Positions 1 through 52,400 of a DNA stretch of 64,000 bases are shown here, in pieces. The stretch's first letter is position 1, and every line of letters starts with the position of its first letter. Location: NCBI GenBank assembly GCA_050084515.1, contig CM114271.1, positions 21,886,001-21,950,000 on the forward strand, written 5' to 3'. The position numbers and the translations under genes are program-made. The DNA comes from Blasia pusilla (Eukaryota). Under the pieces are notes generated by a model. That model did no database searches and was not told where the DNA came from. It saw only the letters and a program-made list of their open reading frames with translations.

Positions 1-1497
1 CTCTCGACGGCCGCTAATCATAGGCTGGCTCTTCCGGCGGCAATCTCTCGACGGGCGGCTAATCACGGATATTTGCCGCGGCTAATCTCTGGATGGCGGA
101 TATTGTTGGGACGGCGGCTATTTTCTAGGCGGCTGCTATACACACGCCGACGGCTATGTTCTAGGCGGCCGGTTTTTCTTCGACGGGCCGATAATCTTTG
201 GGGGGCGGCTATTTTCCGGCTATGTTCTAGCTCTAATCACAGGCCGGGCAGATATTGTTGGCACGGCGGCTATTTTAGGCGGTCGCTATACACAAAGCCG
301 GCGGCGGCTATGTTGTAGGCGGTCTTTGAGGCAGCGGCTATTTTCTCGACGACTATACACACGCCGCTAATCTAGAGGTCGGCGGCGGCTATTAATCGAC
401 GGCGGATATTGCTGGACGGGGCTAATCTGCGACGGCAGCTAATCAGTCGGGCGGATATTGTTGGCACGGGCTTAGGTTGGAGGTTACTTTCTTTAGGCGC
501 TATGGTGTTTATACACAAAGCCGGGAGTGGGTTTATGTTGTAGGCGATTCCGTCTTTTTCTTCTTCGACGGCCGCTAATCACGGTCCGCGGCTAATCACA
601 GCCGTGGGCTAATACTCTCGACGGGCGGATATTGCCGGACGGGCGGTTATTTTCTAGGCGATCGCTATACACACGCCGGTTTCCTCCATTCCCTCCTTTA
701 TTTGTTCTAGGCGGCCTTCCTTATTTTTCCTTCTTCTTCGACATGGGCGGCTATTCACTTATTTTCCCCCTCTTCTTCAATTTTCTTCCTCTCCTCCCTT
801 ATTGTTGACGGGCTGCTTTATTCCCATCCTTATTTTTCCTCCCTCTTCTTGAATAGCTTCATGTTTCAGAAATTTTCTTATGACGGCTCGCTCCCTTCAT
901 AATCACTTTCTTTTCCCTCCCCTTCCTTTTTGCTCCCTCGGCTTCAATTATTCTCTTCCACGGAGGCTAATCACAGCCGGAGGCTAAGTCTTTCGACGGC
1001 GGATATTAGGATTGAGAGGGGCGGCTCCACCCCTATATTTTCTAGGGTCGATTATTCTATACACACGCCATTGGGCGGCTATGTTCTAGGCTAAACTCCT
1101 CTATGACAAACCACGCCGTCACACTCTGAAATTCTTTCTTCTCTCGACGGGCGGTTATGATGAACCCAAAGCTCATTTTGAGGATCCACGACTGAAATAG
1201 AGATTATCTTATCTTGTGCCACTATTCATTTTGACACAAGTAGATTTCCTCTTATCTCTTCCAAAATATCCTCTTTTACCCACATGATATTTTCCAAATT
1301 GCCCTAACTAACCTGCCACCAACCAAGACTACTTTTGCTTTTCATTAAAGACTACTTTACTTTTAAGTCGTCTTTATTTATTACCTCCTTTTCCTAAAGT
1401 TGGCTACAAAGGGCGGAATAGCCGCAGAAATTTTCAGAGCCGCTAATCACATCCTCCCTCTCCTTCCATTTTATTTTATTCTACACCTCCTCTCCTC

Positions 1498-1940
1498 TGT
1501 CATGAACATACGGATTATGTCGTAGAGTATAGTGTGCTAGTAGAGGCCATTCCTTATGTAGGACCGTAGTGGCTTGGTAGAGATGCGGACTTTTTATACA
1601 TAGGGTTGGGGTTACATTTAGGTGGGGTGACTTTCCCCAAAAGAGGGCCCGCTCTTAGGTTGGAGGATATATAGGTGGAGTGCACTCAATCTTTGGAAAG
1701 TTCTTTGAGTTGAGCCTTGGCTATGGTGTTTCCCGCAAGCTTCGACCTAGATTCTCCCATCGTGGAGTGGGTTTGGCGCGATTGTATGTGATTCTATACG
1801 TGTTTTATGATAGTAGGTCTTTCATGGATTTCAAGTTGTGGTACACTGGTGTTTGTGGATACTCTCGTCTATGTTATGTAGGTATGTGAGTATGGTATGT
1901 CAGCCATGTATGCTGTATGGCGATGTGGATTCGCACGACA
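1498..1940. mobile_element. Solo LTR, 443 bp, with 4-bp TSD CCTC
   Basis: Termini TGTCATG...CACGACA (TG...CA, imperfect inverted ends). CCTC at 1494-1497 and 1941-1944. Removing the insert and one TSD restores the host repeat TCTCCTCCCTTCATG. TATA-like GATATATAG at ~1666. Confidence 0.7.
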
Positions 1941-2467
1941 CCTCCCTTCATGTTTCCTCCATTCCCTCCTTTATTTTTCCCTCCCCTTCATTTATTTTTC
2001 CCTCCCCTTCCTTATTTTTCCTCCCTCTTCTTCAATTTTTTTCCTCTCCTCCCTTCATGTTTCATGCATTCCATGCTTTATTTTTCCCTCCCCTTCCTTA
2101 TTTTTCCCCCCTCTTCTTCAATTTTCTTCCTCTCCTCCCTTCATGTTTCATGCATTCCCTGCTTTATTTTTCCCTCCCCATCCTTATTTTTCCTCCCTCT
2201 TCTTCAATTTTCTTCCTCTCCTCCCTTCATGTTTCATGCATTCCTTGCTTTATTTTTCCCTCCCCTTCCTTATTTTTCCTCCCTCTTCTTCAATTTTCTT
2301 CCTCTCCTCCCTTCATGTTTCATGCATTCCCTACTTTCTTTTTCCCTCCCCTTCCTTTTTTTTGCTCCCTCTTCTTCAACTTTTTTCCTCTCCTCCCTTC
2401 ATTTCTCTTCCATTCCTAGTATTTCCTCCCTCTTCTTAACCCCTTCATGTATTCTCCACCCCCCCGT
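1941..2467. repeat. Pyrimidine-rich 86-bp tandem repeat, about 5-6 copies; degenerate continuation 3326-3660
   Basis: TTCCTCTCCTCCCTTCAT recurs at 2041, 2127, 2213, 2299 and 2385 (exact 86-bp period). Confidence 0.95.
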
Positions 2468-3325
2468 TGTCGTGTCGAGAGTCTTTCTTCGAGCAAGGGC
2501 GGGCCTTCTAACTTGACATGGTAAGGATTGAGGAAAGGAAAGTCGGGCACAGCTCGTGCTCCACCCCTATCCATGCTTGACACACATTCTCTACTCTCCT
2601 CAAGAATGGGTTTTGGCGGAGTTATTCTCCCAAGAGGGGTAATCCACTCTCATTGGGGAAGTAACAAGCCAAAACTTCCGCTATTTTAGTATGACTAAAC
2701 TCCTCTACGGTGACAAACCTCGCATCCCCACACACACACATCACACTCTAGAAATCTCTCAAAGAATAGACCATGGTCAAGTTACTCTCCCAAGAGGGGT
2801 GATCCACTCTCATTGGAAGAGCAAGCAATCCCAAAGCCATACACTCAAGAGAGACACGAGAGACTCAAGATGTGGAATAGAAGGTGATGAACCCTTGAAG
2901 GTCCCTCCTCTTTATATACTCACAAGGGATCCACAAGAGTACGAAATAGAGATTATCTTATCTTGTGCCACATGGCTTCCTCCCAAGGCTTAGCCAATCA
3001 CATTTTGACACAAGTAGATTTCCTCTTATCTCTTCCAAAATATCCTCTTTTACCCACATGATATTTTCCAAATTACCCCAACTAACCTAGCCACCAACCA
3101 AGACTACTTTTGCTTTTCATTAAAGCAACTACTTTACTTTTATAAAGTCATCTTTTATTTATTACCTCCTTTTCCTAAAGTTGGGCCCGCATAAAAGAGG
3201 CACCATAAAGAGGTTTAAACATAAGAATCTCCTTTTTCTAAGCCAATTTACTTAATACTAATGAAACTCTATCTAACACTTAATGACGAAGGAGTTTACA
3301 TACTGGTTGATTTTACTATACGACA
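2468..3325. mobile_element. Solo LTR, 858 bp, with 4-bp TSD CCGT
   Basis: Termini TGTCGT...ACGACA (perfect 6-bp inverted repeat, TG...CA). CCGT at 2464-2467 and 3326-3329. Internal ~35-bp duplication at ~2621 and ~2782. It interrupts the TC-rich repeat. Confidence 0.85.
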
Positions 3326-4419
3326 CCGTCTCCTTCATTTCTTTCCCTCTCCTTCCTCAATTTTCTCCTCCCTCCCCACCTTAGTTTTTCCACCCTCTTT
3401 TATTCAAATTTTTTTCCTCTCCTCCATTCCTTCACTAATGTAAACCCCTTCAATCTCCAATTTGCTCCTTCTTCATTTCTCCTCCCCCGCACTAATTTCC
3501 TCCCTCTCCATCAATTTTTTTCCCTCCCCCCTCTCCTTCATTTCTTTCCCTCTTCTTCCTCAATTTTCTCCTCCCTCCCCATCCTAGTTTTTCCACCCTC
3601 TTCTCCCTTTTTTTTCCTCTCTTTTCCTCAATTTTCAGATTCCTTCATCCCTTCCTCTCAAAATATAGCCTTAGACATGGTGAAGTATGCTGGCTAAGGG
3701 AGAGTCGCCGCCTGGGCTACGGTCAGAATGGCGCAGAAGGGAGTCAAGCCCTCTCTGCGGCTATTCTCTGTTGTGAAGGGAGTGGCTCGTCATGCTGAAG
3801 TGCAGAGAAGGCGATCAAGCCGGCATGCGGCTATAGTGTGCGTACTAGGGGACGGGCTAGCGGGTATGTAAATCGACCTTGGATATTGAATAGAAACCTG
3901 GAATGCATGCGTGCGAGTGGTGGACGGGCAGGCAAGGCTAGGACGTGAGGCCAATTTTCAGATTCAACGTTGAGATTTCAATTATTAGGTCAATTTTCAG
4001 ATTTCACATTTCAGATTTGAGGGTGATGAAGGTCGAATGTGCTCTTGGGCAATTTTTCCCTCCCCCTCTCCTTCATTTCTTGCGATCTTGCAGAGCGGAA
4101 GTTTTTCCACCCTCTTCTCTTTTTTTGCGGATTGGGGACGAGCCGGCTGATTGCGAACGCAGAGGGACGGCTATCCTCTTGGGCGGATTGCGATTGTGGA
4201 GCTTTGGCGGCTAATGTGTGGATTTCGGACATTAGAGTCTCAAGTGCAGCCCGCGGCAGGTTTTAGGTCCAATTTTATGCCATTTGAAGTGAAATGCCGA
4301 GCTTGGGGTTTCAGTGATTTCTCCTTTAGGTCAATTTGAAGCAATATGGTGTGGCAGATTTACCTTGGTGTTGCGGGTTTGGACGCAGACGGGTAGATGC
4401 CTTGTTAGTAACACGCAAA

Positions 4420-5070
4420 GATGGTAGAAATTAGCGTGGATATGGCTAATTTCAAGATGGAGGTATGAGCCGCTCGTGAGATTAAGCTAATTTCAAGGCG
4501 GTAGATGCCTTGTTAGTAACATAAGCTTCTTGAAATTAGCTGTGACGGCGGCTAATATCGAGATAGAAGAAATATATACCTTGGTAGTAATTTCAATATG
4601 GCAAAATTAGCTCGCTTTGGCAATAGAAATAATATGGTAGTAATTTACTTGCAAGATGCTAGAAAACAGCCCAGAACGCGGATAATTTGAGATGGTAGAA
4701 ATTAGCCTCAGCCGTGGCTAATTTCAAGATGCTAAAACTAGCCCCCCAGGCGGCTAATTTCAAGATGGAGGTATGATACCGCCGCAAGACTAATTTCAAT
4801 ATGGCAAAAATTAGTGCAGCGGTGGCGCCTACTTGCAAGATGCTAGAAAACGACCGCAGAACGCGGATAATTTGAGATGGTAGAAATTAGCCCCAAACGG
4901 CGGCTAATTTCAAGGTGGAGGTATGACCAGTGCCCGGCTAATTTCAATATGGCAGAAATTAGCGCAATGCGCCGCCTAATTGCAAGATGCTAGAAACAAC
5001 CGCAGAACGCGGCTAATTTCGAGATGGTAGAAATTAGCCGCAACCGCGCTAATTTCAAGATGGTAGACTT
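4420..5070. repeat. Array of palindromic ~36-bp units CGGCTAATTTC-N9-GAAATTAGCCG
   Basis: Best unit 5009-5041: GCGGCTAATTTC GAGATGGTA GAAATTAGCCGC (12-bp inverted arms). A higher-order repeat TTGCAAGATGCTAGAAA occurs at ~4649, ~4833 and ~4980. Confidence 0.85.
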
Positions 5071-6191
5071 TCCTCCTCCTTCGGAATTTTCATGGCGCCG
5101 GCGTGTTAATTGATCTGTTCGGTTCATGGTGAGATTATCCTAGATGCAAGGCCTACGGGGACGTCAACTCTTCAATTTTGTGGCGATCAATGAGATCTCC
5201 TGCGAGTGGTTTTGTGGCTCTTGGCTTATATTTCGGAGATTGATTCGCAGGAAAAATATCTCCAAATATTCTCGGACAGATGACTCAAAAGCGTTGTTCA
5301 GCCGCTGCGCTTTCACCGATACTTTCCGTCTTTGGTTCCTAACGCCACGCGGAAATACTCTTCTGCCGTGGAGAATGCTGCACTAACAGGTCTTTTCCGC
5401 TCACTACTATCTCTCAAGCGGAACGGTGAGGCTGGGAAGGATAGGCAGTTGAGAGAAGGCATGGCATCTTGTTTGTAATGTACATGCATCACTCACTACA
5501 TATGATTGATATGAATAAGACCAACGAATGAAGAAATTTTCTGCACGGTTTAAATCCATTCTCGTTAACTTTGGTGTGGACTCTGGAGCGTCACGCTTCT
5601 TGGACGAGCTTAAATATACCTCTGAACATTTGGTTAGAATGCATTCAGAATTTGGAGATACGCTTCACGGCTAGAGTTCTGCTACTTCAAAGCTACATTG
5701 ACCTCTGCAAAGGCTTCATTTGGGTAACTCCACTACTTTTGCTTGCCTAGCCAATGCCACTTGTCCTGAGCCTCCAAGAGATGCAATGTTTTCTTGGATT
5801 GCTCACAATCACCAGAAGTTATGACCATCACTTAAGTATTTCTTATGTGTTTGGATGCAAAAATCTGAATTTACACTTAATTTCATTATCAGTGGTTTAT
5901 GTAAATACACAGATAGATTTTTGGCATGGTCCAAGCTCTTGTAATGATTTTTCATCCAACTTTCCAACCACTTCTTAGAAAGCAAGAACTTATTTCTGTA
6001 CTGACATTATGTGTATGCAGATGCTTGCAGCATTTAGTGTTGATCACAAAATTGTGTATCATGAAACAATTTTCATTCGAAATGGAGGTATGAGGGCTTT
6101 GCCTCTTCTTCCTTGTATTTTATACATACGAGAGAAAACTGGTAATTTCCTTTATTCTTGCTTTCTAACTAGGCGGGTGGGACAAAGTGTC

Positions 6192-6800
6192 TCCTTATGA
6201 ACAGGATGCCTCGTCATGTCAGATGGGGACTCCATAAGTGCCTCACATATCCTCTTGTGTGGGACTTCTATCTTTTTTCTCCTGCAGAGATTCACTCAAA
6301 GATTTGAGGCTTCCAAAACATCACTGACAGTTGATTCCTCAGCAATTGAAAGTGGACTATCGACCATAGGACCTGAACTTCCCTCCGGTAAAGCCTCAGG
6401 TACAGAGTCCTTGGGTAATTTGACTGGGGCAGAATTTGTTTTTTCATATGCTCTTCTGATCTCTGGTACTGGCTAATATCAAGAGGGTAGTAATTAGCCG
6501 CAGCCGGCGGCTATTTTCCTTATGAACTGGGATGACTGCTCAGTCATGTAAGATGGGGACTCCATAAGTGCCTGACATATCCTCCTGTGTGGGACTTGGA
6601 TCTTTTTTCTCCTGCAGAGATTCAATCAAAGATTTCAAATTTCAAAACATCACTGACAGCTGATTCCTCAACAATTGAAGCTGGACTTTCGACCATAGGA
6701 CCTGAACTTCCCTCTGGTAAAGCCTCAGGTACAGAGTCCTTGGGTAATTTAATTGGGGCAGATTTTGGTTTTGCATCTGTACTTCTGATCTCTGATATCT
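6192..6800. repeat. Tandem duplication of a ~325-bp segment
   Basis: CCTTATGAAC...GATGGGGACTCCATAAGTGCC...GGTAAAGCCTCAGGTACAGAGTCCTTGGGTAATTT is present at ~6192-6470 and ~6518-6800. Confidence 0.9.
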
Positions 6801-7220
6801 GAGAACGTAAACTACGGAACAGATTCAGAACTGTCTTTGGATGAAACTTCCTTTGCTACTTCTATGCAAATGGCATTTTTTTTTGTATCTCATTCTTCAT
6901 GCTGACAGATGTCTTTTTGGCAGGCGAATCGACGGATCTACCTAAAGGATCGGACTTCCCACAGGTGCATACTCCTCTACTAGTATCAGATGAGACTACA
7001 TGCTTAATTCTAGCGTCTGAACCTGGGTTAGCTGTCGTCACATCTGGATGATTTATTCGCTCTCACAGAACTCCATTGGAAGTACTTCACATTCTATGTT
7101 TGTATTCACCAAGGGCTATACCCTCCCATTGATAGAAAGTCCTATCGGGGTTGTCACTAATGTGCTTAGTTGGGTTTGGTGCATTTACCATACAATCTCC
7201 CTCTTCTTAATTTCTTGCAG

Positions 7221-10200
7221 GGACAACATCTAAGTCAAGCTATGGAAGCAGGGTTCCCATTAAAAGATGTCGTTTATCGGACAAACTTTGCTAGGTTGGA
7301 TGAGAATGTAGATAAGGACATGGCTGTTACCATGGGAGTCGCTGGAGTGTGGGAGGTGGATTGGACCGTCTGTGATAAGGATATGGTCATAAACTTCTTG
7401 ACCACGTTCAACCTCGACACTTCAGAGGGGATGCTTTGACGAATCTACGGGCATACAATGTCAGAGTATGCTTTATGCATCTCTCCAGAACTCATAGCAA
7501 ATGCTTTCCAATTCAACCACCTTGGCTCATTCTTATCTATGGAGCGCCAACACACTGATCAAGAGGAGCCAAGAATTTATTCCAAGTACCTCACCAAGCT
7601 GGACAAGAATAGCCACGGATACAAGCTAGGGTGTGTTGTGCCAGAGAACTTTCGGGCACTACTATTACAACTGAATCGTTGCTTTCATATGAAAGCAAAC
7701 CCCGAGTGTGTCCCTGCAAGCATGTTATCAATGGCATGTCGGGCTTGGGAAGGCATTCCGGTGGATTGGGCAAGCTATGTGTACAGGAAACTCATGCTTG
7801 ATATCAGGCAAGTCCTCCGACCAAGAGCCAAGAGAGAGAAAGTGAGAGAAAGCGGAGTTGGAGTTATTTTGACCATTCTCTTCAACCATGGCGATGATCC
7901 GACCTCACATGAGGTGACTGTAGCAGAGGCCACCCTAGTATCAGATCCAAAATTGAAAGGGAAGGCAAAGCTGAGTGGGACTCCACCGACCGAGCCCAAG
8001 AATCCTCGGAAGAGGAAAATTGCAGGAAAGGAGGAGAGTGAGCCCAAAGACAAATCAGACCGATTGCGCATAAAATTGAAGCTACCTACCAAAGACACTA
8101 CTACAGGGAAGGCACAAACTTTAGATGATAGCGATGATTTCATTGCAAAAAAGAAAATGCCGAGAAATAAGAGTTCCTCACATGGAGCCGGGAAGGAGCT
8201 TCCACAATCGCAGATGAAGAATCCGAAGTCTCGGCCAAAAACCCAAGGAAAGAAGAAAGTGAGGGTTCTAACCATTTCTATTCATTTTGTTTTACTTTCT
8301 TGGCTATATGCATGAACGGCGGCTATTCACAGCCCAGGGCACTTGCAAGCATTAACCTGCGGCTAAATTGTAGACTAATAGCAGCCGGCGGCGGCTATTC
8401 ACAGCCTTTGCACAAAGATGCCAGAATGAACCGGCGTCTATTATAGCGTAAGTTCGGGCGGCTATTTTAATTCTCCGGATGGCGACTAAGAGCAGCCGCC
8501 GGTGACTATTAAGCCCGCTTTTGGACAAGGCTACCAGAAAGAGTCGGCGTCTATTCTAGCACAGGGGGGCGACTATGCACTCTCTTTGGACTAAACAAAA
8601 TAGCAAATGAAGGGGGCTATTCACGACCACCATTGTACAAGGTTGGCGGCTATCCACATCGTTTGGGGAAGGCTACTAGCTTACACAAGGATGCCTACAC
8701 TTTTTTAGTTTTCTTTATATGTAAATATAACTTTTGGGGTTCATTGGTGTGTACTAGAGACGTCTACACTTCCAAAGAAAAGTTAAGAAGGAAGATGATT
8801 CGCAACTCGCCGATTGCTACAAATTCGAATCCAAGTGTAAGTAGAGTAAGATTTCATCATAGCTTGGTATTCTTTCATGTAGACAAGATAAACGTTTTCT
8901 CAAAACCAGATTCCCCTAAGGACTCCTCCTTCCATAGAATCCAAAGCGGGTGTATAAAGACTTGCTATCCTTTCCTTTTGCAGATGAGGATGTCAATTGT
9001 GAAGTTCGTAGTCTTATAAATTTATTTTTTGGGTGGTACAGAATACTACTACGTCTAGTCGACCTCGCCGTGCAAGAATGGAGATTTCAAGGTTGGGTAT
9101 TGCGAAAGAATAGGCCTGCACATGAGAGCAATGTCATTGTAGAGGAGCATATTTCAGGCCCGCCACGGCTTCAGGGGAAAGTGAAGGTCTAAAGGAACCC
9201 CATGTCGAGGAGGAGCAGGGTGAACCCGTCTGTGAGGTGGGTGTCATTGATACTCAGAAGGTGATAGATGAGGTGATCAAAGGCATCACAGAGGAATTGA
9301 ATACTGCTGAGGACAAGGCAGCGGAGGATTCAAAAGATCATGTCATTCATTTGGAGGATAGTGAAGCAAAGGAGCCTGAGAAGAAGGATGCGGCTAGCCC
9401 TAAGTCCAATCCAAATGACACTCACACCAACAGACATGATTCACCTTCACCTGTACATGGAGTGAAGAGTGGAGAAAGCAAAGGGAATGAGCAACGGAAG
9501 GATGGTATCGATGGCTTGGATTGGCAAGAATTTGGGAACTTGCCTGAATGGAACACTCAGAAGGTAGGAGGTTGGGAAGTTCCCAATGTTTCTCAGTTCG
9601 GGCCTTCACAACACCGTAGGGAGTCTCTAGGCACAACAAGGAAAGACACGGCAGATGCACCTATGAAGATCACTACAGAGGGCCCTCATGGGAACATGGC
9701 AAGCGGCACACCACGTGCTCACCCTACAACAACGACAAGGGCCCAGCTTTTCGTGGAGCCTATGGTGATTACCCGAGGCTCTCAAACCATGGACAAGTTT
9801 CTTGTGAACAGAATGAGTCAAACTGACCATATGTTCACATTGGATCAACAATTGCAAACAGATAGTATCCCTGAGGTGCACATGGTTAACCGATTATGCC
9901 AGATTGAGAGCGTGTACCATGTGAACAACTATGTGCAAACTGAGGACTCCACATGGTGGATGAATCACATGCGGTCCAAAGCGCTAGCAATGGTTCCAAC
10001 ACGCGGTGCTCCACAACCCACACCATCAAGTGAAGATGGTATACTCCCTAATGCTGGGGGAGCTGAAGGTTTGGACGGAAAAGAAGATGGGCTCAAATCA
10101 CAGAAGGTATTCTGCCAATCTTCAATTGCCCATCTTCCTTTATGTGGCCTCTATTCTCCAATCGTTCTTCACAAATTGCACTAAGTTCTTATGGATTTTT

Positions 10201-11007
10201 GGCATTCTCAGTGGAGGACTCAACCTATAGGTGAAGGTTTACTCTATATTTGTTGGATTGTCCCAAAACCCTATCCAAAAATCCTTAGTGATCACAATCG
10301 GCGCCTATTCACTGTGGGCGGCTATTCACACAGCCTTAGTGATCACAACCGGCGGGTAAACATAGCCGACGCCTATTCGTAGTGGGCGGCTATGCACACC
10401 CAATGCCAATTTCTAGGCGGCGGCTAATCACAATCAAAGGCTTTGTGCTAAGCACAAAGTGGGGCTAATCACACACGGCGGATTTTTTCCATTGTAGGTT
10501 ATTTCATGTACACATTCCGTTTGTCTTTGGATGTAGGGACCAACGGAAGAAGTACCAGAGGAAGACCCGAGTGTGCCACAAGGAGGGTTTCTGATTGATG
10601 AGAGAATCATACAATTGTGGATTAACCATTTGGGGATGCCCGCGGAAGATGTGGTGCATTTGGAGTGTTGGGAGGACAAAATTCATCTCACTGAACGAAC
10701 CACAGCTAGAGTAGACAAGTATGTTGAAGTCCTGGAGCTAAGGCACGCAGCTTTTCTCGCTGACAGAGGATATCTCATTACAAAGTTAGGAGTGACCGGC
10801 TATGACAACAAAGGTGGGTGGGAAGAAGCCTTGCGTAGAGTGACAACCTTGCAAGATTCGGCAGCAAGGAATTCACAGTTTATTCGTGATCTCTTGAGTA
10901 GGCTAGGTGTGTCATCAGACGGCTTGGACGAGGCATCCTGTTTCTCCAGGGCTCTAGTGGCTATTGTTGACTTGCAGCGGTTGGATTCTTTAGGTCCAAG
11001 CATGTAA
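7221..11007 (+). pseudogene. Multi-exon transposon accessory gene, disrupted (plant-transposon-protein-like N domain, K/E-rich middle, helical C-terminus)
   Basis: Acceptor TTTCTTGCAG at 7220 opens exon 7221-8258. ORFs 7170 and 7458 share one frame, broken only by TGA at 7437-7439. Donor GTGAGG at 8259. An exon of ~9160-10106 joins in frame via intron 10107-10536 to 10537-11007 (TAA). The motif AWEGIPVDWASYVYRKLMLDI resembles TE-associated plant proteins (family assignment from memory). The 8700-9160 exon structure and the start codon are unresolved. Confidence 0.6.
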
Positions 11008-11109
11008 TAAATCTTTGTAAAGTTCCTTTTTGTTTTATGGTGAAACGATGATCACATCCATGTTGTATAATGTATGTCAAGCGTTGGAATTTGTGCACTT
11101 CCACCCCAA

Positions 11110-11540
11110 ACCCCACAACCTGCGGCTAAAACGGTCATCAGCCCTGGGGCTGCGGCTACAACCTGCGGCTAACTCCAAACCCTAAACCCTAAACCTGCGG
11201 CTAAAGCATGCGGCTAAAACCTGCAGCTAAAGCATGCGGCTAAAACCTGCGGTTAAATTGGTCCATCCTCTCCCCCTTGGCTGAAACTTCATCAGCTCAC
11301 TGCAATGCCATGACACACTGGAGATGCGGCTAAAACCTGCGGCTAAATCCAAGCTTCCACCTTAAACCTGCGGCTAAAACCTATTGTTAAATTCGTCCAT
11401 CCTCTCCCCCTTGTCTGAAACTTCATCAGCTCACTGCAATGCCATGACACACTAGAGCTGCGGCTAAATCCAAACTTCCACCCTATACCTGCGGCTAAAA
11501 CCTGCGGCTAAATTGGTCCCTCCTTGGCTGAAACTTCAGA
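11110..11540. repeat. Subterminal ACCTGCGGCTAAA array with a ~130-bp higher-order duplication and an embedded (AAACCCT)2 telo-box
   Basis: More than ten (C/A)TGCGGCTAA copies. GTCCATCCTCTCCCCCTTG...CCATGACACACT is duplicated at ~11261 and ~11395. AAACCCTAAACCCTAAACC at 11177-11195. Confidence 0.85.
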
Positions 11541-12144
11541 ACTTCTACGGTTAAGTGCAAAGGTCTACTACTATAGAAATGGTACTAGAGCAATTACCGG
11601 ACTTCCCGGTAGCTCATATCCCAACCGGTGGGAACTCTGACGTGGCAGTTCATAGGGGCCACTCAAGCAAGAGATTTCGTAGGGGGACCACTTAAGCAAC
11701 ATAAGTAGGGCAGGGGGCCACTTAAGCAAATACCTAACGGAAATGAGAACCTCGGAGGTTGATCACCCGTGTATAGGACCACCTAATTTGGGTTTATGAG
11801 GGAATCACTAGCTTGATAGAAAAGAAAACTACAAGGCATGCATGCCTCTTCCATGGTTTATTATACATTTTCTTATCGGTTATACATTTAGATTTATGAG
11901 GGAATCGCTAGCTTATATCTAAAAGCTACTGGACATGCATGCCTCTTCCATGGTTTATCAAAAAAATATTTTCTATTTTATATTTCTTTTATGAGTCATT
12001 AGTAGTTCTTTATTTTGTTCAATTTTGATTAGAAAGTAGATAAAATAACATTGAAGAAAAGAAGTTGTGAAAAAAATTACTTTTTTCTCCCCGACCCCCA
12101 ATAAAAAGTAAGTTTTTGGGAGGTTTATCATTTCCTACTGCGAT

Positions 12145-12372
12145 ATGAATCAGTCCTACTCTTGATGAAGCCACATGTAGTTGTAAATGAGGAAGTGCAC
12201 GAGTATTGATGTAGATATGTAAATTTTCTCTAAAGTTTTAACCCTAAGACTTATGAATAGTCATACTCTTGATAAAGCCACATGTAGTTGTAAATGAGGA
12301 AGTGCACGAGTATTGAAGTATATATGTAAATTTTCTCTAAAGTTTTAACCATAAGACTTATTAATAGTCATA
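12145..12372. repeat. 107-bp tandem duplication
   Basis: CCACATGTAGTTGTAAATGAGGAAGTGCACGAGTATTGA at 12171 and 12278. Confidence 0.9.
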
Positions 12373-14899
12373 CAGAAAGCAAAGACAAAAAGGAAATTGA
12401 TATCTAAGCGAATAAAAAGATGACTCTAATCTCCATATAGTGAATGGAATTAATAGAATGAAAATTCAATCTCCAATATTTTTCCCTATAATAATCTTGA
12501 CATATAATCTATTACACGTCGTATGAATCCATGAATCACTAATCATGTCATGCACCTGCTCCATTCAAAATCAATCATTTGTGTCGCAAAAGCTTACGTT
12601 TAGTTGATAACACTCTCCTCACTAACTTGTACCCAAACACACTCATATTAACCATAGTTTGGGCCAATCAGCCTTACATCTTGTGAGTTTGGATCTCAAG
12701 TTACCCCTCGAATTCAAAACATCTAAACGTTGTCAAATATCAACCTAACCCCACCCCCAACACACGTAGGTCATTCATGATTTGAGATAAACTTCCTTGA
12801 TAATCTAGGGACATGAAACAACACTAGCACGGTCCTAACTTCCCAACGGACCTCAAACAAGTCTACTATTGGAACTCCATATCAAAGGCCCAATGTTGAT
12901 GTCCATAATTGGACTACCTCGACTTGGCTTGCTGTCAAAATCCCAACGTCAACCTCTCAATCTATCCACAACCCTTTGTTGAACCCATGTGGTTCACAAA
13001 GTAGGGTGCAAGTTATGAACTTCATTAGAGACTCCCCCCCCTTATATATACGTTCTGAGAAATCCACCCCTCCCTTCATCCAAGGATTTCCTTCTAAACT
13101 ACTCCTTGTGAGTCTTTGGTCCTCAACCTAAACTATCATTCCAATAGTTGCAGGCATGTTTTAAGACTTTCTAGTGTTTTTGTTCAGACCTTTGGCACGG
13201 TGGAACCAACTTTTCATAAGCATTCTAATGTTGTATGCGTATAGGCCAATAGCTTGTGCTAAGTTAAATAGACACTCACATCCTAAGTACTGCAAACTTG
13301 GAATTTTTTTGTTGACATAAACTCCAACCAAGCTCCTTCCATAGATGAAAAGACTAGGAAATAGACTGATAAAAGGCTCGTGGAATAGCATGAGAATGTG
13401 GGTCACGACCATTCTCTTTAATTACCTGTTTGGAGAGCCCACATAAATATCAAAAGGGTGACCATTTGACTCACCAATGTTGATTTGTGCTTCTATCTTC
13501 TCAATTATACGCCCAAGTGTGAGCTTTAAAGTTCTCTTGATATTCATACCACATCTATAAGGGGTCTTGGACTATAAAGACTTCACAAAATCCCTACCAA
13601 GTTTGATTTTTGGTACAATTACAAACAAAAAATTTTGAGTATAATATCATCTTTACAAATTCTCGCTATCAATCATAAGGAGTTATATACATTGATCTCA
13701 AGAGAGGGGATCATGTTAAGGCAACCCTAAACCCTCTCTTAGGTTCATCCCCTTTTGAGACCCCTATTAGAGCGGCTTCATAAACTCCTCATGTCAATGG
13801 TCCTACTCCCATAGTCATATAAATATAAATCAAATATCTAAAAAATACCTCGTGCCTATTCATCCTCGGGTAAAGCTAAACTGAGGTTGAGGCGGGGCTG
13901 CTCGAGCTGCCCTAGACTCCGTACAGAGTCCTGGGTTGGAGAGGAGGCTACAAGCGGGATCTTGTTTGAAAAGTTAGGCTGGTGGCGGGAAATCTTGTAG
14001 AGGTCGTCGGGCAGGGTAGAGGGTGAGCTCAATCGCGCTTGAGTGCTGCGGCGGGAGGGGGGAGAGGGGAGGGCCAACATTCTACTATCATAGTTTTCAT
14101 GCACATACACATCACTACACAATCTACACCGTTGGTCACATCTACACACCACACAACACAAATCTTCCCAACACACGAGAAGATCCACACATAAACAAAC
14201 TACACTCATGCATGTAACTTGAGACCACACAACCATCCCCCTAGTTGCTAGTTGGATCCCCCTAACTCTAGATAGCATAATCACATCTACCTGACGCGAT
14301 CTATTACTCTATACACATCTAGCACCGGCAGTGTTGTTATATCCGCCACATCTCCCAATAAATGCTTGTCCGCGAATCCATCTCATCTGTCTCTACCTAG
14401 GGAAATCGATGTATCCGTTAGTCATCCTACAATATTGTAGCTAATCGCCGTGTTGATCCCTTTGAAGAGACCTAACACTCTTGCACCCTCCTCTAGAAGC
14501 TGCAACACAACCTTTGTGGTGTCCAAAGATGTCAAGTCTCTAGTCGTAGACCAGGTCTTTCACCACACTCTATCTGATCCAAGATACAAGCACCGCTCCA
14601 CACTTGCCTCGCGAGCTCATCTGCACTCCTATGCAAATCAACACTCGTACCCAAAATATTAAAGAGGTCTTCGCACCATAGGGAGAGACACCCATCTCGA
14701 TATGTCTCTCCGTGGGATTATCCACTCCGAGAATATCCTCGGCATGTGTGTCCCTTCCAAAAACTCTCCTAGTCACCTAACACCAAAATGTAAATGCTAC
14801 CAACGTGGTCGCCATATCGTCATGTGGTCGACCATGCCACCACTACGCCTTGCAAACTACACCGGTAAATGGCTCATCCGTCCATCACCTGATTGTCAT

Positions 14900-45879: not shown

Positions 45880-47180
45880 TTCCACAACTCATGAGAGCTG
45901 AGTCCCACGGAGTTGTGGAATACCGGCTGAAACCGTCGGCCAGCCGGTTTCAGGGCAGGGAGGGCCGTTTCCAGGGTAGGGATGGCGCAAAGACGAAAGC
46001 CTCAAGAGGTCGGACTTCTTGCGCCCAAAATTTTTGGACGCAAGAAATCTGAGGACCTCGTCAAATTTCTGCGATTCCAGCGGACAAACACATCATCTTA
46101 GCCGTAGAATCGGTATAATCTGGACCAACTGCCACCTTCGATGAGCAACGCTGGCCCATGGGATAAGGCTCCAAGAGGCTGATCCCATGGAGGGATGCAT
46201 AGGCAAAACTGAGGCATGACCTCATTTTTGCACCCAAAATAATTTTCCGTTGGAGAATGAAACAAAACCCATCGGTCGTATGTAACTACTTTTGGTTATG
46301 AGCAGATGGAGGTCGCTTTATGGCCAAAAAATGGTGGGCGCATAAAAACTCGAGACGCCTCCATGCATAAGATCACGCCCTAAGGGCCGGGTCCCATGGG
46401 CCAACGTCGGTGCCCGACGCTGGTCCTTGTTAAAGCAGATCTCCATCGGACGGTCCAGAATTTTTGTCCTGGCCGGAGTCGGTGATTTGCAAAGAGAGTC
46501 TTTGGTTTTATCCGGCAGTCCTTGGTTTTCTTGCACCCAAAAAAATTGGGCGCAAGAAATGATTTGCGTCCTCGCGACCTCCACAACCCGTTGGGGACGG
46601 TAGAAATTTGAAAAAACTGGTTCAAGTTCTAGCCGTTTTTGTCGTTTTTGTCGCTTTCTTTTGTCGTATTCTACCAACCGGTTGGAAGGAACCGGCTGGA
46701 AAGCCGCCGCCGGCGAGCAGTTCCAGCCGGGCGGGTGAGCTTTTGGGGTCGCAGCGACCTTAAGAAGTCGCCATCGACCGCCCTAAGGGCCGGATCCCAT
46801 GGGCCAGCGTCGGGCACCGACGGTGGTCCTTGTTAAAGCAGATCTCCATCGAACGGTCCAGAATCTTTTGTCCTGGCCGGAGTTGGTGATTTGCAAGCAG
46901 AGTCTTTGGTTTTGTCCGGCAGTCCTTGGTTTTCTTGCGCCCAAAAAAATTGGGCGCAAGAAATGATGTGCGTCCTCGCGACCTCCACAACCCGGTAGAA
47001 ATTTGAAAAAACTCGTTCCACTTCTAACCGTTTTTGTCATTTTTTTGTCATAATCTCCCAACCGGTTGGAAGGAACCGGCTGGAAAGCCGCCGCCGGCGA
47101 GCAGTTCCAGCCGGCGGCGGGAACTGCTTCTTGGGGTCGCAAGCGAACCCAAGAAGTCGCCCATGCGACCCGGCCCTAAG
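45880..47180. repeat. GC-rich, palindrome-dense element: two ~403-bp tandem copies plus an inverted partial copy
   Basis: CGCCCTAAGGGCCGG at 46376 and 46779, with a third partial start at ~47172. 46000-46190 matches the unit in reverse complement. Multiple perfect internal inverted repeats. Confidence 0.85.
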
Positions 47181-49473
47181 TGACTCCCAGAACTTCTAAA
47201 TGACCACGGACCGAACGGAACGTTGTTGTTGCGAGCTCATCTCCGTTCCCTTAGACTCCCGCTCCGGCGTACGCCTTACGGGGGTAATCTTCACAAAGCA
47301 ATCCAATACATGCGCAATTTGCGTGGAGGATGATGGAGGAGAGGTCGCGAGTAATAACTGAGAGGTTGGGTCGGCACTCGGAATGACGAGGTGGTGGGTA
47401 GCGTGCGTGCGCGAGAACGGCGTGGGAGTCGAACAAACGACGCTGAGTGTGGAGGGCCATGGGCCCTAGGAAAAGGCGAAAAAGAGGAGGGGAGCGTTCG
47501 CGCAGTGAACTAGGTACAGTAGGACTTTACGCAGGAACAGTGGCGGAGTTCCCGTGCACACGGCACAAAGAAAGACGCGGCGAGGCGCTGCTTCCGTGAT
47601 CTCATCTGTTCGCCCGAGGATGCGGAATGCTCATGAGGGAGCCCGGCGACTGCCCAGGACGGTTGTATTCGTTCGTTCGTGTCCCTGGCGGATGTGCCAT
47701 CCAGCGGGCGCCGGAAGAGTGACAGGTTTCAGATGCATGCTCTGATGTAAGGACTGTTGTCCGTGGATCACGGCGCTGCTATTCTTCCCATTCGTCTCGT
47801 TCGGCTGCGAGCAGGACTCGCAGCGCATCTCGGGGTTCGGATGTCTCTCTTCTCTGCTGGATCTATCGCATGCGTCACTCCGACGGGTAGCGGATAGCCT
47901 CTCTGTGAAGGATTCGCTGAACCACTTTCAAGCCGGAACGGTCCTTACGAGACCGGCAGACTTTAGAGTGCTGCTTGGAGAAACCGGCATTCTTTGTAAA
48001 AGGTGCCGGTTCCCAATAGTGTCGTACTGAATTGAAATCCACGGGCCACAAAAGTCGGACACTCGGAAATCATCCGACCCCACTTATAGTGCCAGTGGTT
48101 GTGAATAAATTAATCAGAAATTTTAGAGAATTTAAAGGATAAGGAGGGATTTTAGCGGGGATTAGTAAGGGTTTCAGGTTTATTTTGTAAGTCAACGGAG
48201 GGAAAACTAACCAATTAGCAAAATATAGTAATAATTCTACAGGAGAGACCTATTATCCGATGGACAAATAGTTTGTGCACAGGAGACACACTGGACGCGA
48301 CGGAAACCGATTACACTGGAGGAGGCTGTTATGCGCTGGAGATAAATTTTGTCCACAGGAAGAAAGCTGGGCGCGACGGAACCCTCTAGGATACGACTGG
48401 ATCACATTTTTAAAAACTGAAAAGCCATGCGTATCTCGAAAAGAACAGGCGGACTAAAAAGAAGTGTCCTCACATGTTAGGACTAAGAGAGTGACTTTTC
48501 TTCCACGATTTCCGCGAATTGCTTTCACAAAGAGTGCGATATGGGAGATTCTTTTCCTCGATTCCTTCCCAAGGGTTTCCATGATCCCTTCGAAAAGAGG
48601 TCACACTGGACTGATGACAGAGTTGCTGTCTACCTCCGAGATCTAGTGCCCGAGGGAGTTTGGCCACGGCGGGAACCGCAGGCAGTTGCAGACCGTGGCA
48701 GTCCTACCGGGAGTGGTTGCTCGGCGGTGCCTTGACTGTGACCGGTCGCCGGAGACGACTATCTACGATCCCCATTGTAAGGGGAGATGAAGTAGGGCTT
48801 AGTTTGACATTTGCGTATCACTTAGAAAGTCAAGGACATTCATCGACTCGGGTTTCGCAAACTCAAAGATTGGTACAGACTCGAATCGCTTCAAGAATTC
48901 CACAAGTTACTTTTTGCATACATTTTACTGCACGAAGATGCTTCCAACCATGCTCTGCCACGCGCAAAGTTTGTCAATACGCACTCGTAACTTAGTCCCG
49001 CAACACATCCATGCATGAAGACTTTGCGCTACTAAAACAGAATCTCGGGCATACAAGAATCTAAGGGTGTATACCTTTACGGTCCAGCATGTCAAAGTCC
49101 CACCTCAAAAGAGTAACTGCCTCAAGATGGGTAGGAAAAGTGACCAGATGTTTGGAAGTCAACACAGGTTTTCACCCACTCATTGACCAGATTGCGATTC
49201 GATAGTCCAAAGTATACATGGTGACTCACAGTGCCGCCAAACTGCTGTAGACTGCTCGGTTCAACAGTCCCATACTTCTAGCGACGAAATTGCCCTGCCT
49301 TCCTAAATTCGCTCCTTCCAGAGTGTTACTACATCGCAGTGAGTCAGCAAAACTTCCACCTCATCCTCTAACAAATTGACTCTCCAATTTGTTGAAATCG
49401 ATGAGCCCCAGCGTCACCTAGACTGAGTTCCATGGGTTTGAAGTCACGCCTCTCCCTCTGCTTTTGAGGCAAT

Positions 49474-52400
49474 CTACTTTTGATTTGAGTAAACAGCATC
49501 CACGTCGTCGAGGTCCAACAGTTTTTCCATAAGTGCTTTGTTCAGGTCCATCGCTTCGTCATCAGGCTGGTACCTCAATCCACACATTTCGAAAATATAC
49601 ATCTCAATGCCGTGCACTCTTCAGTATTTGAACAAGTAACGACAAGAAAACTCGTATATTCCGTCTCTCATCATTCAATTGTCACTTTGTGCGAACGACC
49701 TCTCTGGTGTGAGGTAAACTACTCTAGGGCACAGAATTGAAGCTGCGTAGAGGCTCTCTGGGAAGCATTTGACTGGGCTCAATCCGTTTCGTTGGATTAG
49801 GTGACACATTGTGCACGATTGGCTGAGAGGAATCCAATTATTTGGAAGAAATGTAAAACTTGCAAGTTTGTCCACCCGTGACTGTATTACTTCATATTTT
49901 AGATCGATGAAATCGATTTTAGATAAAGACCACAATCACACAAAAGAATCGGAAGGAAGAAAGGAGGAGCGACTTACCTCGATTGCTGCCACGGGAAAAA
50001 GTTCAAGACCAGAGTGATCGGAGTCCACCGGCATTCCGGCTTCCTTCAAGCTCTGGCTGACTGCGGAAAATTGGTCCGCTGGTGTGAGAACCCTGTAGAA
50101 CCTGAACACCAAACCACCGGAGAAACATTTGAGAAGCTTTGCCACGTCCCCTAAAGTCGCTTTTAGCTGTTCTAATACCAGGGTCCAAACATCGAAGTTT
50201 TGTCTACTGCAGTTGCACTACATGATATCTAAATTTGCTGGAACAGAAGAGTAGAATAACTATCTTCGTCACAGTTATTTTTGAGCGGGGAGAAGGATAC
50301 TTTGCTTCTCCATCGTCCTCGTCCTCATCTTCATATACAGGAGGTTCTAGAACATCCTCTGCTCCGGCGTCCATAGCTGCCATTAAAAGTTCATCCCCCG
50401 AGACTCTGGCAATCTCGACGTAAACCACTCCTGTACGCTTGAAATTAAAGAGGACTGACCCCGGATCTGCCATCTTGCCACCTCCCTTCTTCACCACATC
50501 ACGAATGTTAGCAGCGGCACGGTTGTTGTTATCCGTCAAAACTTCCAAAACAAGTCCTACGCCTCCGAGTCCATAAACCTGCCACATCAGTACGCTTGTC
50601 CGTGTCAGACCTATGCCAGTACATGAAAACTTTCCTGGCATAGTGGAATGAATGGCATCCGCCACCTTCGCGAGATATACGGTTATCTTCTGATAAAGGT
50701 ATACCTGTCTCCGTCGATTGAAATTCAATAAGCACAGTAGCTTACACCACGCCCAAAGTTCCATTGCTAGGACGGCTCTCTCTCCTTATGACAGGAGGAT
50801 GATTAGCACACCAAGGTAGATAAGTCACCAAGCCTGTCTGGTACACTTTGGCCGGAATTCAGATACACCAACGGCATCTCAACTAATCTGTTGCCATTAG
50901 GATCGACTTGAATCCCATCCTCGTTATCACGAGAAATTACAAGGGAGATGTTTCCAGCTGTTTTATGATGCATCTGTCATCTAGAGGGCAAGACCTGGAG
51001 GCAAAAGTTGCACAATTCTGAACTAATGTCTGAGAGACTTACATGTCTGCAATTACAGGAGCTGATTCACAAGAGGAGACGTGAGAAGGCAACTCGTTCT
51101 CAACATTAATGAGGACCACTTTAAAAAAAATCCTTAAAACAGCGAGTTTATTAAAGAACTGATTTATTCCCCTCAGGACTTCAAGTAATAATATTTGCAA
51201 TTCGTGAGTGGAAAGTGAAAACTAGATCTTGTAAGAATCTTGCAGTAAGGGCCTGACCCGGGCACAACCTTCCACAAAGAAACTGATGAAAAAATCATCA
51301 GTTTTGGCGAGGGCCTAAATTAGTCTGCAAGCTTAACCTTTCAAGTATTTGTGGTTGCCAGGAAAACTCAATTGTCGAACAGATTCTGTAATTGATATGC
51401 TCGAATGAAGGCTCGGCTTGGGTGATGTGAGATGTGATATCATGATCAAATGGAAAGGAAGAAGTTAAATGAGTGACTCGGTCAGACTTGTCACAAATAT
51501 ATTTGATTCTAGGAGAATGGACTCCTGATTTTTCAAATCCTGAAATGTTGACAACTGTATTTGTGGGCAGATCGGGAAGGCAGTTTTGAAAGTTTGAAGT
51601 AGGTACTTAGGAACATTTAGGGCCAGTGCAAAGCACAGGCGCTCATTACTAGTACTCTTTAACTAACCTGTGTCTTTTTGTTCATCTTAGTATCTTGACC
51701 AGTACTAACGGAAGCTTCATTTTCATCTGCGAGAACATATGGACCAACCGCCAGACTCCTTAAGTGTCTGGGTCAGGGTATACAGTTCATACCAGTCAGT
51801 TTCAATACTCCTCACAGTCAGATCCTTTGAAATATGAAGTTAGAAACGGCAGAGTTTTTTACTGTGTTTACATAGTTGTCCACTTGCAACCTAACCCTCC
51901 ATATCTGAGGGCCGCTCTAGGTGTTGATAATTCAACACGCTATTGTAACTGATCCTAGGATAATAGACTCTAGACCTGATCCACGATGTGGAGCAGTTTT
52001 TTTCGCATCCATGTGTAAAATTTTCCATATCAGGATACACTTCAAATGCCTGGAAACAATAACCAGGAAACTAGCTTTAAGCAGAGGGAGGAGCAAGGCA
52101 TGAAATGTAGAGGGTTCATCAATGAAGAGCGCTGTACAAGGAACTCTTTACACTTAACAAACAGCTCTGTCTTCAAAACCATGTACATCATAGGAAATGG
52201 GCCTAAGGGCTCTGACAACTTCGAAACCATAACAGGAAATGCATGAAATTGGATGGAGCAACAGTAAAACACCACATGTATTGGAGCTCTGATCCAGAAA
52301 ACTGGATCAGAGCTCCAAAACATGTGGTGATTGTCGACTCAGTGAGTCATTACAGACACCACTTTCTTTTCGGCTTAAATGCACATATACTTTCACTGAG

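Follow-up and report, generated by a model that had tools for sequence, protein, structure and literature searches.

Sequence-specific opposition to silencing by transposon-encoded proteins has been published for VANC on the VANDAL elements of Arabidopsis, for TnpA on Spm, and for the AtMu1 transposase; the accessible parts of these reports deal with Arabidopsis and its relatives, and the literature search was not aimed at other plants. The locus compared with these systems here lies in a 64,000-nucleotide stretch of Blasia pusilla DNA (contig CM114271.1, positions 21,886,001 to 21,950,000), referred to below as the window. Positions 1–11735 of the window are best explained as belonging to a single decayed copy of a DNA transposon with terminal inverted repeats (TIRs); they make up its right-hand part, and the left part lies beyond the window start. 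This element carries an orphan gene, and its non-coding DNA holds dense arrays of the motif GCGGCTA. The original prediction was that gene and motif could form a VANC-like anti-silencing system in a Mutator-like element (MULE).

In the accessible part of Hosaka et al. (2017, PMC5735166), the VANC21 motif is described as occurring in one orientation and at high density, mainly in non-coding DNA and within tandem repeats, with copies in the introns of the accessory gene and upstream of the transposase. The VANC21 target repeats gain and lose units between copies and are rare elsewhere in the genome (same source). The portion of PMC13547354 that is available likens the structure of VANC to the PMD protein MAIN, calls VANC dicot-specific, and gives 9LNK as the deposited structure of VANC21. 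For TnpA of Spm1, the available text of Sasaki et al. (2026, preprint 10.64898/2026.08.24.746577) reports that high-density clusters of a CpG-containing motif are needed, and that TnpA causes CG hypomethylation, confined to the termini, and activation of cognate copies. The same preprint finds that the AtMu1c transposase, acting by itself, binds its TIRs and activates cognate copies. The accessible part of Pelissier et al. (preprint 10.1101/2024.09.27.615353) places MuDR-encoded PMD-C proteins in monocots and eudicots, describes PMD-C together with MAIN, MAIL1, and MAIL2 as transposon-borne or transposon-derived proteins that act on short DNA motifs and oppose silencing, and notes that PMD-motif modules adjoin teloboxes and GA repeats, the latter named as Polycomb response elements.

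On its DNA side the element resembles the VANDALs of VANC21 and VANC6. A short motif is massed at high density and in one direction within non-coding tandem repeats, the introns of the accessory gene included, and is rare in exons and elsewhere; these are the features of VANC target arrays, and the arrays here also vary in unit and in number between copies. Dense clusters of a CpG-containing 10–12-bp motif are likewise a feature of TnpA of En/Spm (CCVTCGCAAA for Spm1 in the available text), and one array of the element, A3, is such a subterminal cluster. Unlike the arrangement in En/Spm, the arrays here also lie deep inside the element and in introns. The motif itself, GCGGCTAWNNNC, contains a CpG and is unrelated to the VANC motifs YAGTATTAY and AGTTGTMC. 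By analogy on this DNA evidence, it is plausible that the element works like VANC or TnpA, a statement about its manner of working rather than its membership of either family.

Motif Arrays and the Extended Site

The hexamer CGGCTA has 53 matches in the window, compared with 12.8 ± 4.2 expected from 100 shuffles, none of which reached 53 (largest, 24). Fifty of the 53 fall within 56–11510, 46 of them on the + strand, and the three copies outside the element are all on the − strand. The heptamer GCGGCTA is present in 40 copies on the + strand and 3 on the − strand of 1–11530. It is absent from both strands of 11735–64000 (52,266 bp counted), 52 kb of host DNA in which gene-like CpG-rich stretches are included. 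Both the dense arrays of the original prediction and its remark that none were seen beyond the TIR-like end are borne out by these counts.

The + strand copies of GCGGCTA are divided among five arrays, with 11 in 1–1150 (A1), 7 in 3700–5070 (A2), 5 in 8259–8760 (I1, in intron 1), 3 in 10109–10536 (I3, in intron 3), and 12 in 11008–11530 (A3). One further copy lies in 5071–7241 and one in an exon. The density of CGGCTA in the arrays is 10.6/kb (42 in 3973 bp), compared with 2 per 2471 bp in the three large exon stretches (sites 9391 and 10797, the latter lacking the leading G) and 3 per 52,266 bp, both strands counted, in the flank. The near absence of the motif from exons that had been claimed therefore stands. 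An unsupervised k-mer count over the five arrays (3973 bp) returned GCGGCTA as the top 7-mer (38 copies on the +, 1 on the − strand); no other 7-mer occurs at least twice in every array.

The surroundings of the motif were examined by aligning the 42 array sites on CGGCTA, the flanking positions having played no part in the choice of sites. A G is found at position −1 in 38 of 42 sites, an A or T at +6 in 41 of 42, and a C at +10 in 32 of 42, where it also forms the majority in each array. Information is low at the positions between and around these three. Since −1, +6, and +10 were not selected and are nevertheless conserved, the site is about 12 bp long and reads GCGGCTAWNNNC. A sharp-edged conserved footprint of this kind would be expected of a binding site, unlike shared descent.

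Similarity between the arrays was assessed by BLASTN of 1–11734 against the whole window (E ≤ 1e-5). All 90 non-self rows stay within 1–11734 and on the plus strand, and no row links one array to another. The repeat units are therefore unrelated and have the short core alone in common, in agreement with the earlier remark that units differ while the core is kept. The tandem periods across the arrays are 13/26/134, 36–37/147, 113, and about 17–18 bp.

Array A1 (1–1150, + strand) is cut by the window start and consists of complex degenerate units whose mutual likeness is only 60–83%. It holds 13 copies of CGGCTA, all on the + strand, and is CpG-island-like, with a GC content of 0.516 and an observed/expected CpG ratio (CpG o/e) of 1.21. 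Array A2 (3700–5070, + strand) contains 9 copies on the + strand and 1 on the − strand. From about 4430 it is built of 36–37-bp units of alternating inverted arms, GCTAATTTC and GAAATTAGC, exactly 9 nt apart (4427–5056), which could be dimer sites or hairpins. A perfect 12-nt inverted pair, GCGGCTAATTTC and GAAATTAGCCGC, is also present in A2 at 5009–5041. Array I1 (within 8259–8757, + strand) has its five GCGGCTA copies at 8320–8647 together with degenerate copies in a 113-bp unit, and I3 (within 10107–10536, + strand) has 3 CGGCTA copies on the + strand and 1 on the − strand at 10319–10421. The subterminal array A3 (11008–11530, + strand), 225–610 bp from the element end, contains 12 CTGCGGCTAA sites with periods of 13, 26, and 134 bp. 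Its unit number differs between family copies, as seen from reads that skip or add repeat units.

CpG Content of the Arrays

The CpG o/e of the arrays is 1.21 for A1, 0.97 for A2, 0.83 for I1, 0.70 for I3, and 0.59 for A3. The values for the three exons are 0.55, 0.45, and 0.54, and that for the 52-kb flank is 0.70. The o/e of TpG plus CpA is 0.61 in A1 versus 1.20–1.42 in the exons. In A3, 12 of the 17 CpGs sit in the motif. The arrays contain 38 intact GCGGCTA sites and 36 one-mismatch variants, 3 of which are products of CpG deamination. The claim that the CpGs of the motif arrays largely persist holds for A1, A2, I1, and the motif itself in A3; it fails for I3 and for A3 overall. As judged from base composition, the contrast between arrays and exons agrees with lower germline methylation of the arrays.

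Element End and Family Copies

Reads from two RNA runs and a genomic run, together with a contig set, all from the same organism, were mapped to 5071–13500 at 90% identity or more. The genomic depth past 11815 is about 1 (bins of 1.66, 1.28, 1.59, 0.91, 0.69, and 0) and that over the exons is about 24–37, from which a family of about 20–35 copies and a genome of about 1–2 Gb follow. The 937 genomic reads placed comprise 55 at 99% identity or above, 491 at 95–99%, and 391 at 90–95%, so that the copies are some percent apart and the studied copy has no near-identical twin. Over the intron arrays the DNA depth at this identity threshold is about 8–18, versus about 24–37 in the exons; arrays turn over faster than exons between copies.

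Past 11735, reads run into mutually discordant flanks (agreement 0.43–0.69), which fixes the right end of the element and confirms the end predicted at 11734/11735. A second read break at 11621/11622 leads into one consensus (17 genomic reads, agreement 0.96). Such a break would be seen with left-end reads aligned in reverse, if the TIR measures about 113 bp, and equally if short derivatives of the element form a family. The terminal block of about 113 bp between the two breaks (11622–11735, + strand) is a probable TIR. Three CCACTYAAGCAA repeats stand within it in direct orientation (11659, 11688, and 11718), and GCGGCTA is absent. The block is the natural candidate for the terminal binding sites of the transposase. 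A terminal block with its own triple repeat and without GCGGCTA implies that the arrayed motif is not simply a terminal transposase site.

VANDALs are poor in TIRs, unlike the element described here with its terminal block. Long TIRs of about 100 bp or more and a target-site duplication of 9–11 bp are hallmarks of MULEs. A MULE-like identity is a reasonable guess, and not a finding, given the foreign segments, the extended terminal block, and an element that exceeds 11.7 kb. VANC is encoded beside a MuDR-type transposase (VANA); here no transposase open reading frame (ORF) is present in the visible 1–11734, as judged from the ORF list and from Pfam, MuDR/MULE PF10551 and the SWIM finger included, and the MULE superfamily is for that reason unproven. 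Other element classes were considered for the right end. The terminus reads ...AAATACCT / ...GCAAATACCT, which is not CACTA and in this respect is unlike En/Spm; no Pfam match to En/Spm proteins was obtained either. A Helitron end was rejected because the terminal letters are unlike those of Helitrons, and a PIF-type TAA target because the flanks of other copies begin differently.

Minus-strand RNA, at a depth of 5–14 in each RNA run, extends across A3 and the terminal block (10972–11814) and continues into differing flanks; it is read-in or read-out transcription at family termini.

Structure and Expression of the Orphan Gene

The gene was modelled on the + strand from reading frames and splice signals and totals about 865 codons. 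Exon 1 (7242–8258) provides 339 codons from the ATG at 7242, ends at a GT donor at 8259, and contains no CGGCTA. Intron 1 (8259–8782), which holds I1, has an uncertain 3′ boundary at 8782 or 8794. A candidate small exon 2 (8783–8836, alternative start 8795) is in phase and followed by a strong GTAAGT donor at 8837; its sole RNA support is a joint at 8257>8809 in 3 reads of one run. Exon 3 (9042–10106, 355 codons) lies between an AG acceptor at 9040–9041 and a GT donor at 10107. Intron 3 (10107–10536) holds I3, and exon 4 (10537–11007) contributes 156 codons and the stop TAA at 11005–11007. An earlier exon model (8758–8826 plus 8984 onward) was dropped because indels in the reads place the frame entry into exon 3 at 9042.

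The studied copy is broken in two places. The first break is an in-frame TGA at 7437–7439 in exon 1, the stop that the original prediction had pointed out. The second is a disturbed frame at 9103–9160 in exon 3, with an in-frame TAG at 9111. Four single-base indels in this interval are carried by 9 of 15, 10 of 12, 9 of 12, and 15 of 28 DNA reads. Read from the frames by hand, they appear to reopen the frame from 9042 into a long ORF and to remove the stop. Copy differences were taken from the 40 listed among 635. Seven of the listed exon differences are private to the studied copy, with all or almost all of the other genomic reads departing from it, and six of the seven alter a residue. Four listed differences in exon 4 occur in RNA reads and in one contig, but in only 0–2 of 26–36 DNA reads; all four are synonymous. 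In this small, pre-selected sample, the substitution pattern fits a dead copy beside a constrained, expressed one.

RNA strand was calibrated on the GT..AG joint 5722>6020, where a first mate on the − strand corresponds to + strand RNA. Sense RNA at 90–99% identity covers exons 3 and 4 at a depth of about 2–7 in both RNA runs. In the intron-3 bin 10129–10409, sense RNA is zero in both runs and the flanking exon bins are positive. This low-level sense RNA derives from other family copies. The accessory gene of the original prediction is real, multi-exon, and part of the family; other copies appear open where the studied copy is broken, and the gene looks maintained in them.

Proposed Function of the Arrays and Its Alternatives

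The arrays are tentatively interpreted, with a probability of about 0.4, as clusters of sites at which a sequence-specific regulator encoded by the element, most likely the orphan protein, docks and keeps the arrays hypomethylated and the element open to transcription. The orphan gene, of about 865 codons, belongs to the family itself, whose non-coding DNA would have gathered arrays of the 12-bp GCGGCTAWNNNC in the same direction as the gene. Orphan protein made from intact copies would bind these arrays, and the bound arrays would stay poorly methylated and the element genes transcribable, as proposed by analogy with VANC on VANDAL and TnpA on Spm. Footprint, orientation bias, exclusion from exons and from flank, array turnover, and CpG contrast all point to an element-encoded regulator that binds the arrays. 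We infer from these features that a protein binds the motif and that its binding may oppose methylation. The orphan protein is the likelier binder because the terminal block has different repeats, because the arrays lie mostly far inside the element, and because the gene has been resident long enough to carry arrays in its introns.

A number of results weigh against this interpretation. No family match came from Pfam (hmmscan with every exon piece, at E ≤ 1 and at E ≤ 10), with DUF1985, PMD, and En/Spm among the families covered. HMMER with exon 1 against 1.84 billion representatives returned a single, spurious match, and phmmer against all PDB sequences (2026 copy) at E ≤ 10 did not list VANC21 (9LNK). 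A search of the ESM Atlas with exon 1 provided weak leads only, all below 0.85 (range 0.77–0.84). AlphaFold without an alignment gave predicted local distance difference test (pLDDT) values of 36.1 (N-terminal 226 residues) and 45.7 (exon 4), which makes the models unusable. No DNA-binding domain emerged from these searches and models. Outside the protein, CpG retention is uneven, with I3 (0.70) equal to the flank and A3 (0.59) below it, and the shorter core GCTAATTTC of A2 occurs on both strands. The synonymous and non-synonymous counts cover the 40 listed of 635 differences, RNA over exon 1 is low and strand-mixed, and the gene has one weak internal splice joint (8257>8809, 3 reads, with non-canonical ends as aligned).

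The other protein searches were similarly unproductive, and as far as sequence comparison reaches the protein is an orphan. Exons 1, 3, and 4 found no relatives in word-based searches against 5.8 billion protein clusters, and a metagenome protein scan gave 67 pattern matches and no relative. A metagenome scan with a 17-base pattern of the terminal repeat returned 9 loci, and BLAST showed no similarity between any of them and the element. The HMMER match of exon 1, P0001 (E 3.7e-4), was rejected as a bacterial repeat protein, and the PDB matches to superoxide dismutase and Src kinase were dismissed as chance level. The ESM Atlas leads for exon 1 were unnamed Streptophyta clusters (0.82–0.84), a PMD cluster (0.78), a Transposase_32 cluster (0.78), and a DUF1985 cluster (0.77); exon 4 gave no usable match.

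The VANC-like system of the original prediction was upheld in part. The DNA side fits the pattern described in the accessible text of PMC5735166, and the CpG contrast is in keeping with it. The protein has no sequence link to VANC, DUF1985, or PMD: comparison with the VANC and PMD domains by Pfam and by phmmer against the PDB produced no match, VANC21 included, a difference from VANC and, for PMD by HMMER, from PMD-C, the ESM leads to PMD, DUF1985, and Transposase_32 being weak (0.77–0.78). Some likeness in build may exist. As with VANC21 and VANC6, the long accessory protein is predicted to have a globular N-terminal part, a low-complexity middle, and a helical C-terminal part, with the reservation that these assignments come from models with pLDDT values of 36 and 46.

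The binder could instead be the family transposase, an alternative already raised in the original prediction, encoded beyond the window and acting on the arrays in a transposition complex or as an intrinsic regulator, with the orphan gene doing something else; this is unlikely. A3, at its short distance from the element end, is placed like classical subterminal repeats, the orphan protein has no recognizable DNA-binding domain, and the AtMu1c transposase alone binds cognate copies and brings about their hypomethylation and activation (accessible part of preprint 10.64898/2026.08.24.746577). The binding of AtMu1 and Spm1 is nevertheless reported at TIRs or termini in that text. Here the terminal 113 bp carries the different triple repeat CCACTYAAGCAA and no GCGGCTA, and most motif copies are 1–11 kb inside the element, two introns included.

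It is improbable to a similar degree that the arrays are functionless satellite-like DNA, whose core is left over from one ancestral unit and homogenized by unequal crossing-over or gene conversion, and whose CpG richness reflects young expansions. Every array is indeed tandemly repeated, unit number differs between copies, A3 and I3 show no CpG excess, and the protein partner is a candidate only. Such an origin does not account readily for five BLAST-dissimilar arrays that have exactly one 7-mer in common plus G(−1), W(+6), and C(+10), for an orientation bias of 38:1, or for exons nearly free of the motif. In A1, moreover, the units are 60–83% alike, yet the CpG o/e is 1.21.

The GCC box of AP2/ERF factors is AGCCGCC, with the core GCCGCC. 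Host transcription factor sites gathered as an enhancer are a very unlikely explanation of the arrays: half of the sites do read TAGCCGCC, which contains this box, on the other strand, and GGCGGCT occurs 21 times in the arrays (10 in A1, 4 in A2, 4 in I1, 3 in I3, and 0 in A3) compared with an average of 3 on each flank strand, but the block that is conserved lies offset, as GCGGCTA with W(+6) and C(+10), its TA and C(+10) being kept, the G that would complete GCCGCC is a T in 12 of 12 A3 sites, and GCGGCTA is absent from 52 kb of host DNA with gene-like CpG-rich stretches. A cluster of GCC boxes was rejected as a description of the arrays on the same grounds, 0 of 12 A3 sites having GGCGGCT.

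Returning to a regulator encoded by the element, a more far-reaching version is rather doubtful at present: that the family evolved its own anti-silencing factor independently of DUF1985 and PMD, an orphan of about 865 residues that would bind GCGGCTAWNNNC arrays in promoters, introns, and the subterminal region and keep unmethylated CpG-island-like patches in an otherwise CpG-depleted element. If true, counter-defence by a protein and a motif array would have arisen convergently and would not be peculiar to VANDAL and Spm. A protein unrelated to PMD and DUF1985 would make this a convergent anti-silencing system; a very divergent PMD protein would make it a far-flung member with a TIR-bearing host element. 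The same DNA-side signature with an unrelated protein in a much larger plant genome would test whether counter-defence evolves repeatedly. A second question is whether such systems can be recognized directly in raw sequence by their arrays of a CpG-containing motif. The idea is open to direct test, given a short, well-defined site and a small family (about 20–35 copies).

Spacer Regions, Mosaic, and Flank

The motif-free stretch between A1 and A2 (1151–3699, + strand) contains CT-rich tandem arrays and has a CpG o/e of 0.39. A CT-rich 86-bp tandem unit is present five times at 1991–2416 (94% identity), with related units at 3326–3645. CT-rich arrays (GA-rich on the opposite strand) are strongly strand-asymmetric and are found at 1941–2417 and 3326–3645, and also at 679–958 and 4060–4120, where they interleave with the motif arrays. 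The GC skew across 2001–4000 is −0.37. Two overlapping telomere-type AAACCCTAA units lie inside A3 at 11177–11192, and the window contains 5 such units versus 0.9 expected. CT/GA-rich arrays and two telobox units beside motif arrays recall the PMD modules, a parallel that is worth noting and is carried no further.

A direct duplication within the motif-free stretch joins 1227–1403 to 3001–3184 at 94.6% identity. In full it measures about 180–225 bp (1182–1403 / 2927–3184; 94.6% over 184 bp) and flanks a 1.7-kb segment that is mostly CT-rich array, which could be a nested insertion or a segmental duplication.

Between A2 and the gene is a mosaic (5071–7241, + strand) common to about one-quarter of the family copies, with a DNA depth of about 7–13 versus about 24–37 in the exons. 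It contains an internal duplication (6192–6468 and 6517–6797, 88% identical). RNAs with fixed differences from the studied copy match the mosaic on both strands, and several of their loose ends are in perfect agreement. Spliced + strand RNA with the GT..AG joint 5722>6020 and − strand RNA over 6195–7112 come from other loci. The mosaic probably consists of captured or foreign segments with separate genomic relatives. It resembles Pack-MULE capture in that its pieces have separate relatives, some of which are expressed and spliced elsewhere; the MULE identity of the element itself is unproven.

In the flank, exons of a TACO1/YebC-family gene were identified on the − strand at about 50200–52700 (PF01709, E 2.4e-25; PF20772, E 3.6e-9). 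Two adjacent ORFs with a common repeated peptide stretch are present on the − strand at 46318–47175, in a GC-rich block (GC 0.54, 46001–48000). Two of the three CGGCTA sites outside the element are located in or just beside the first ORF of this pair.

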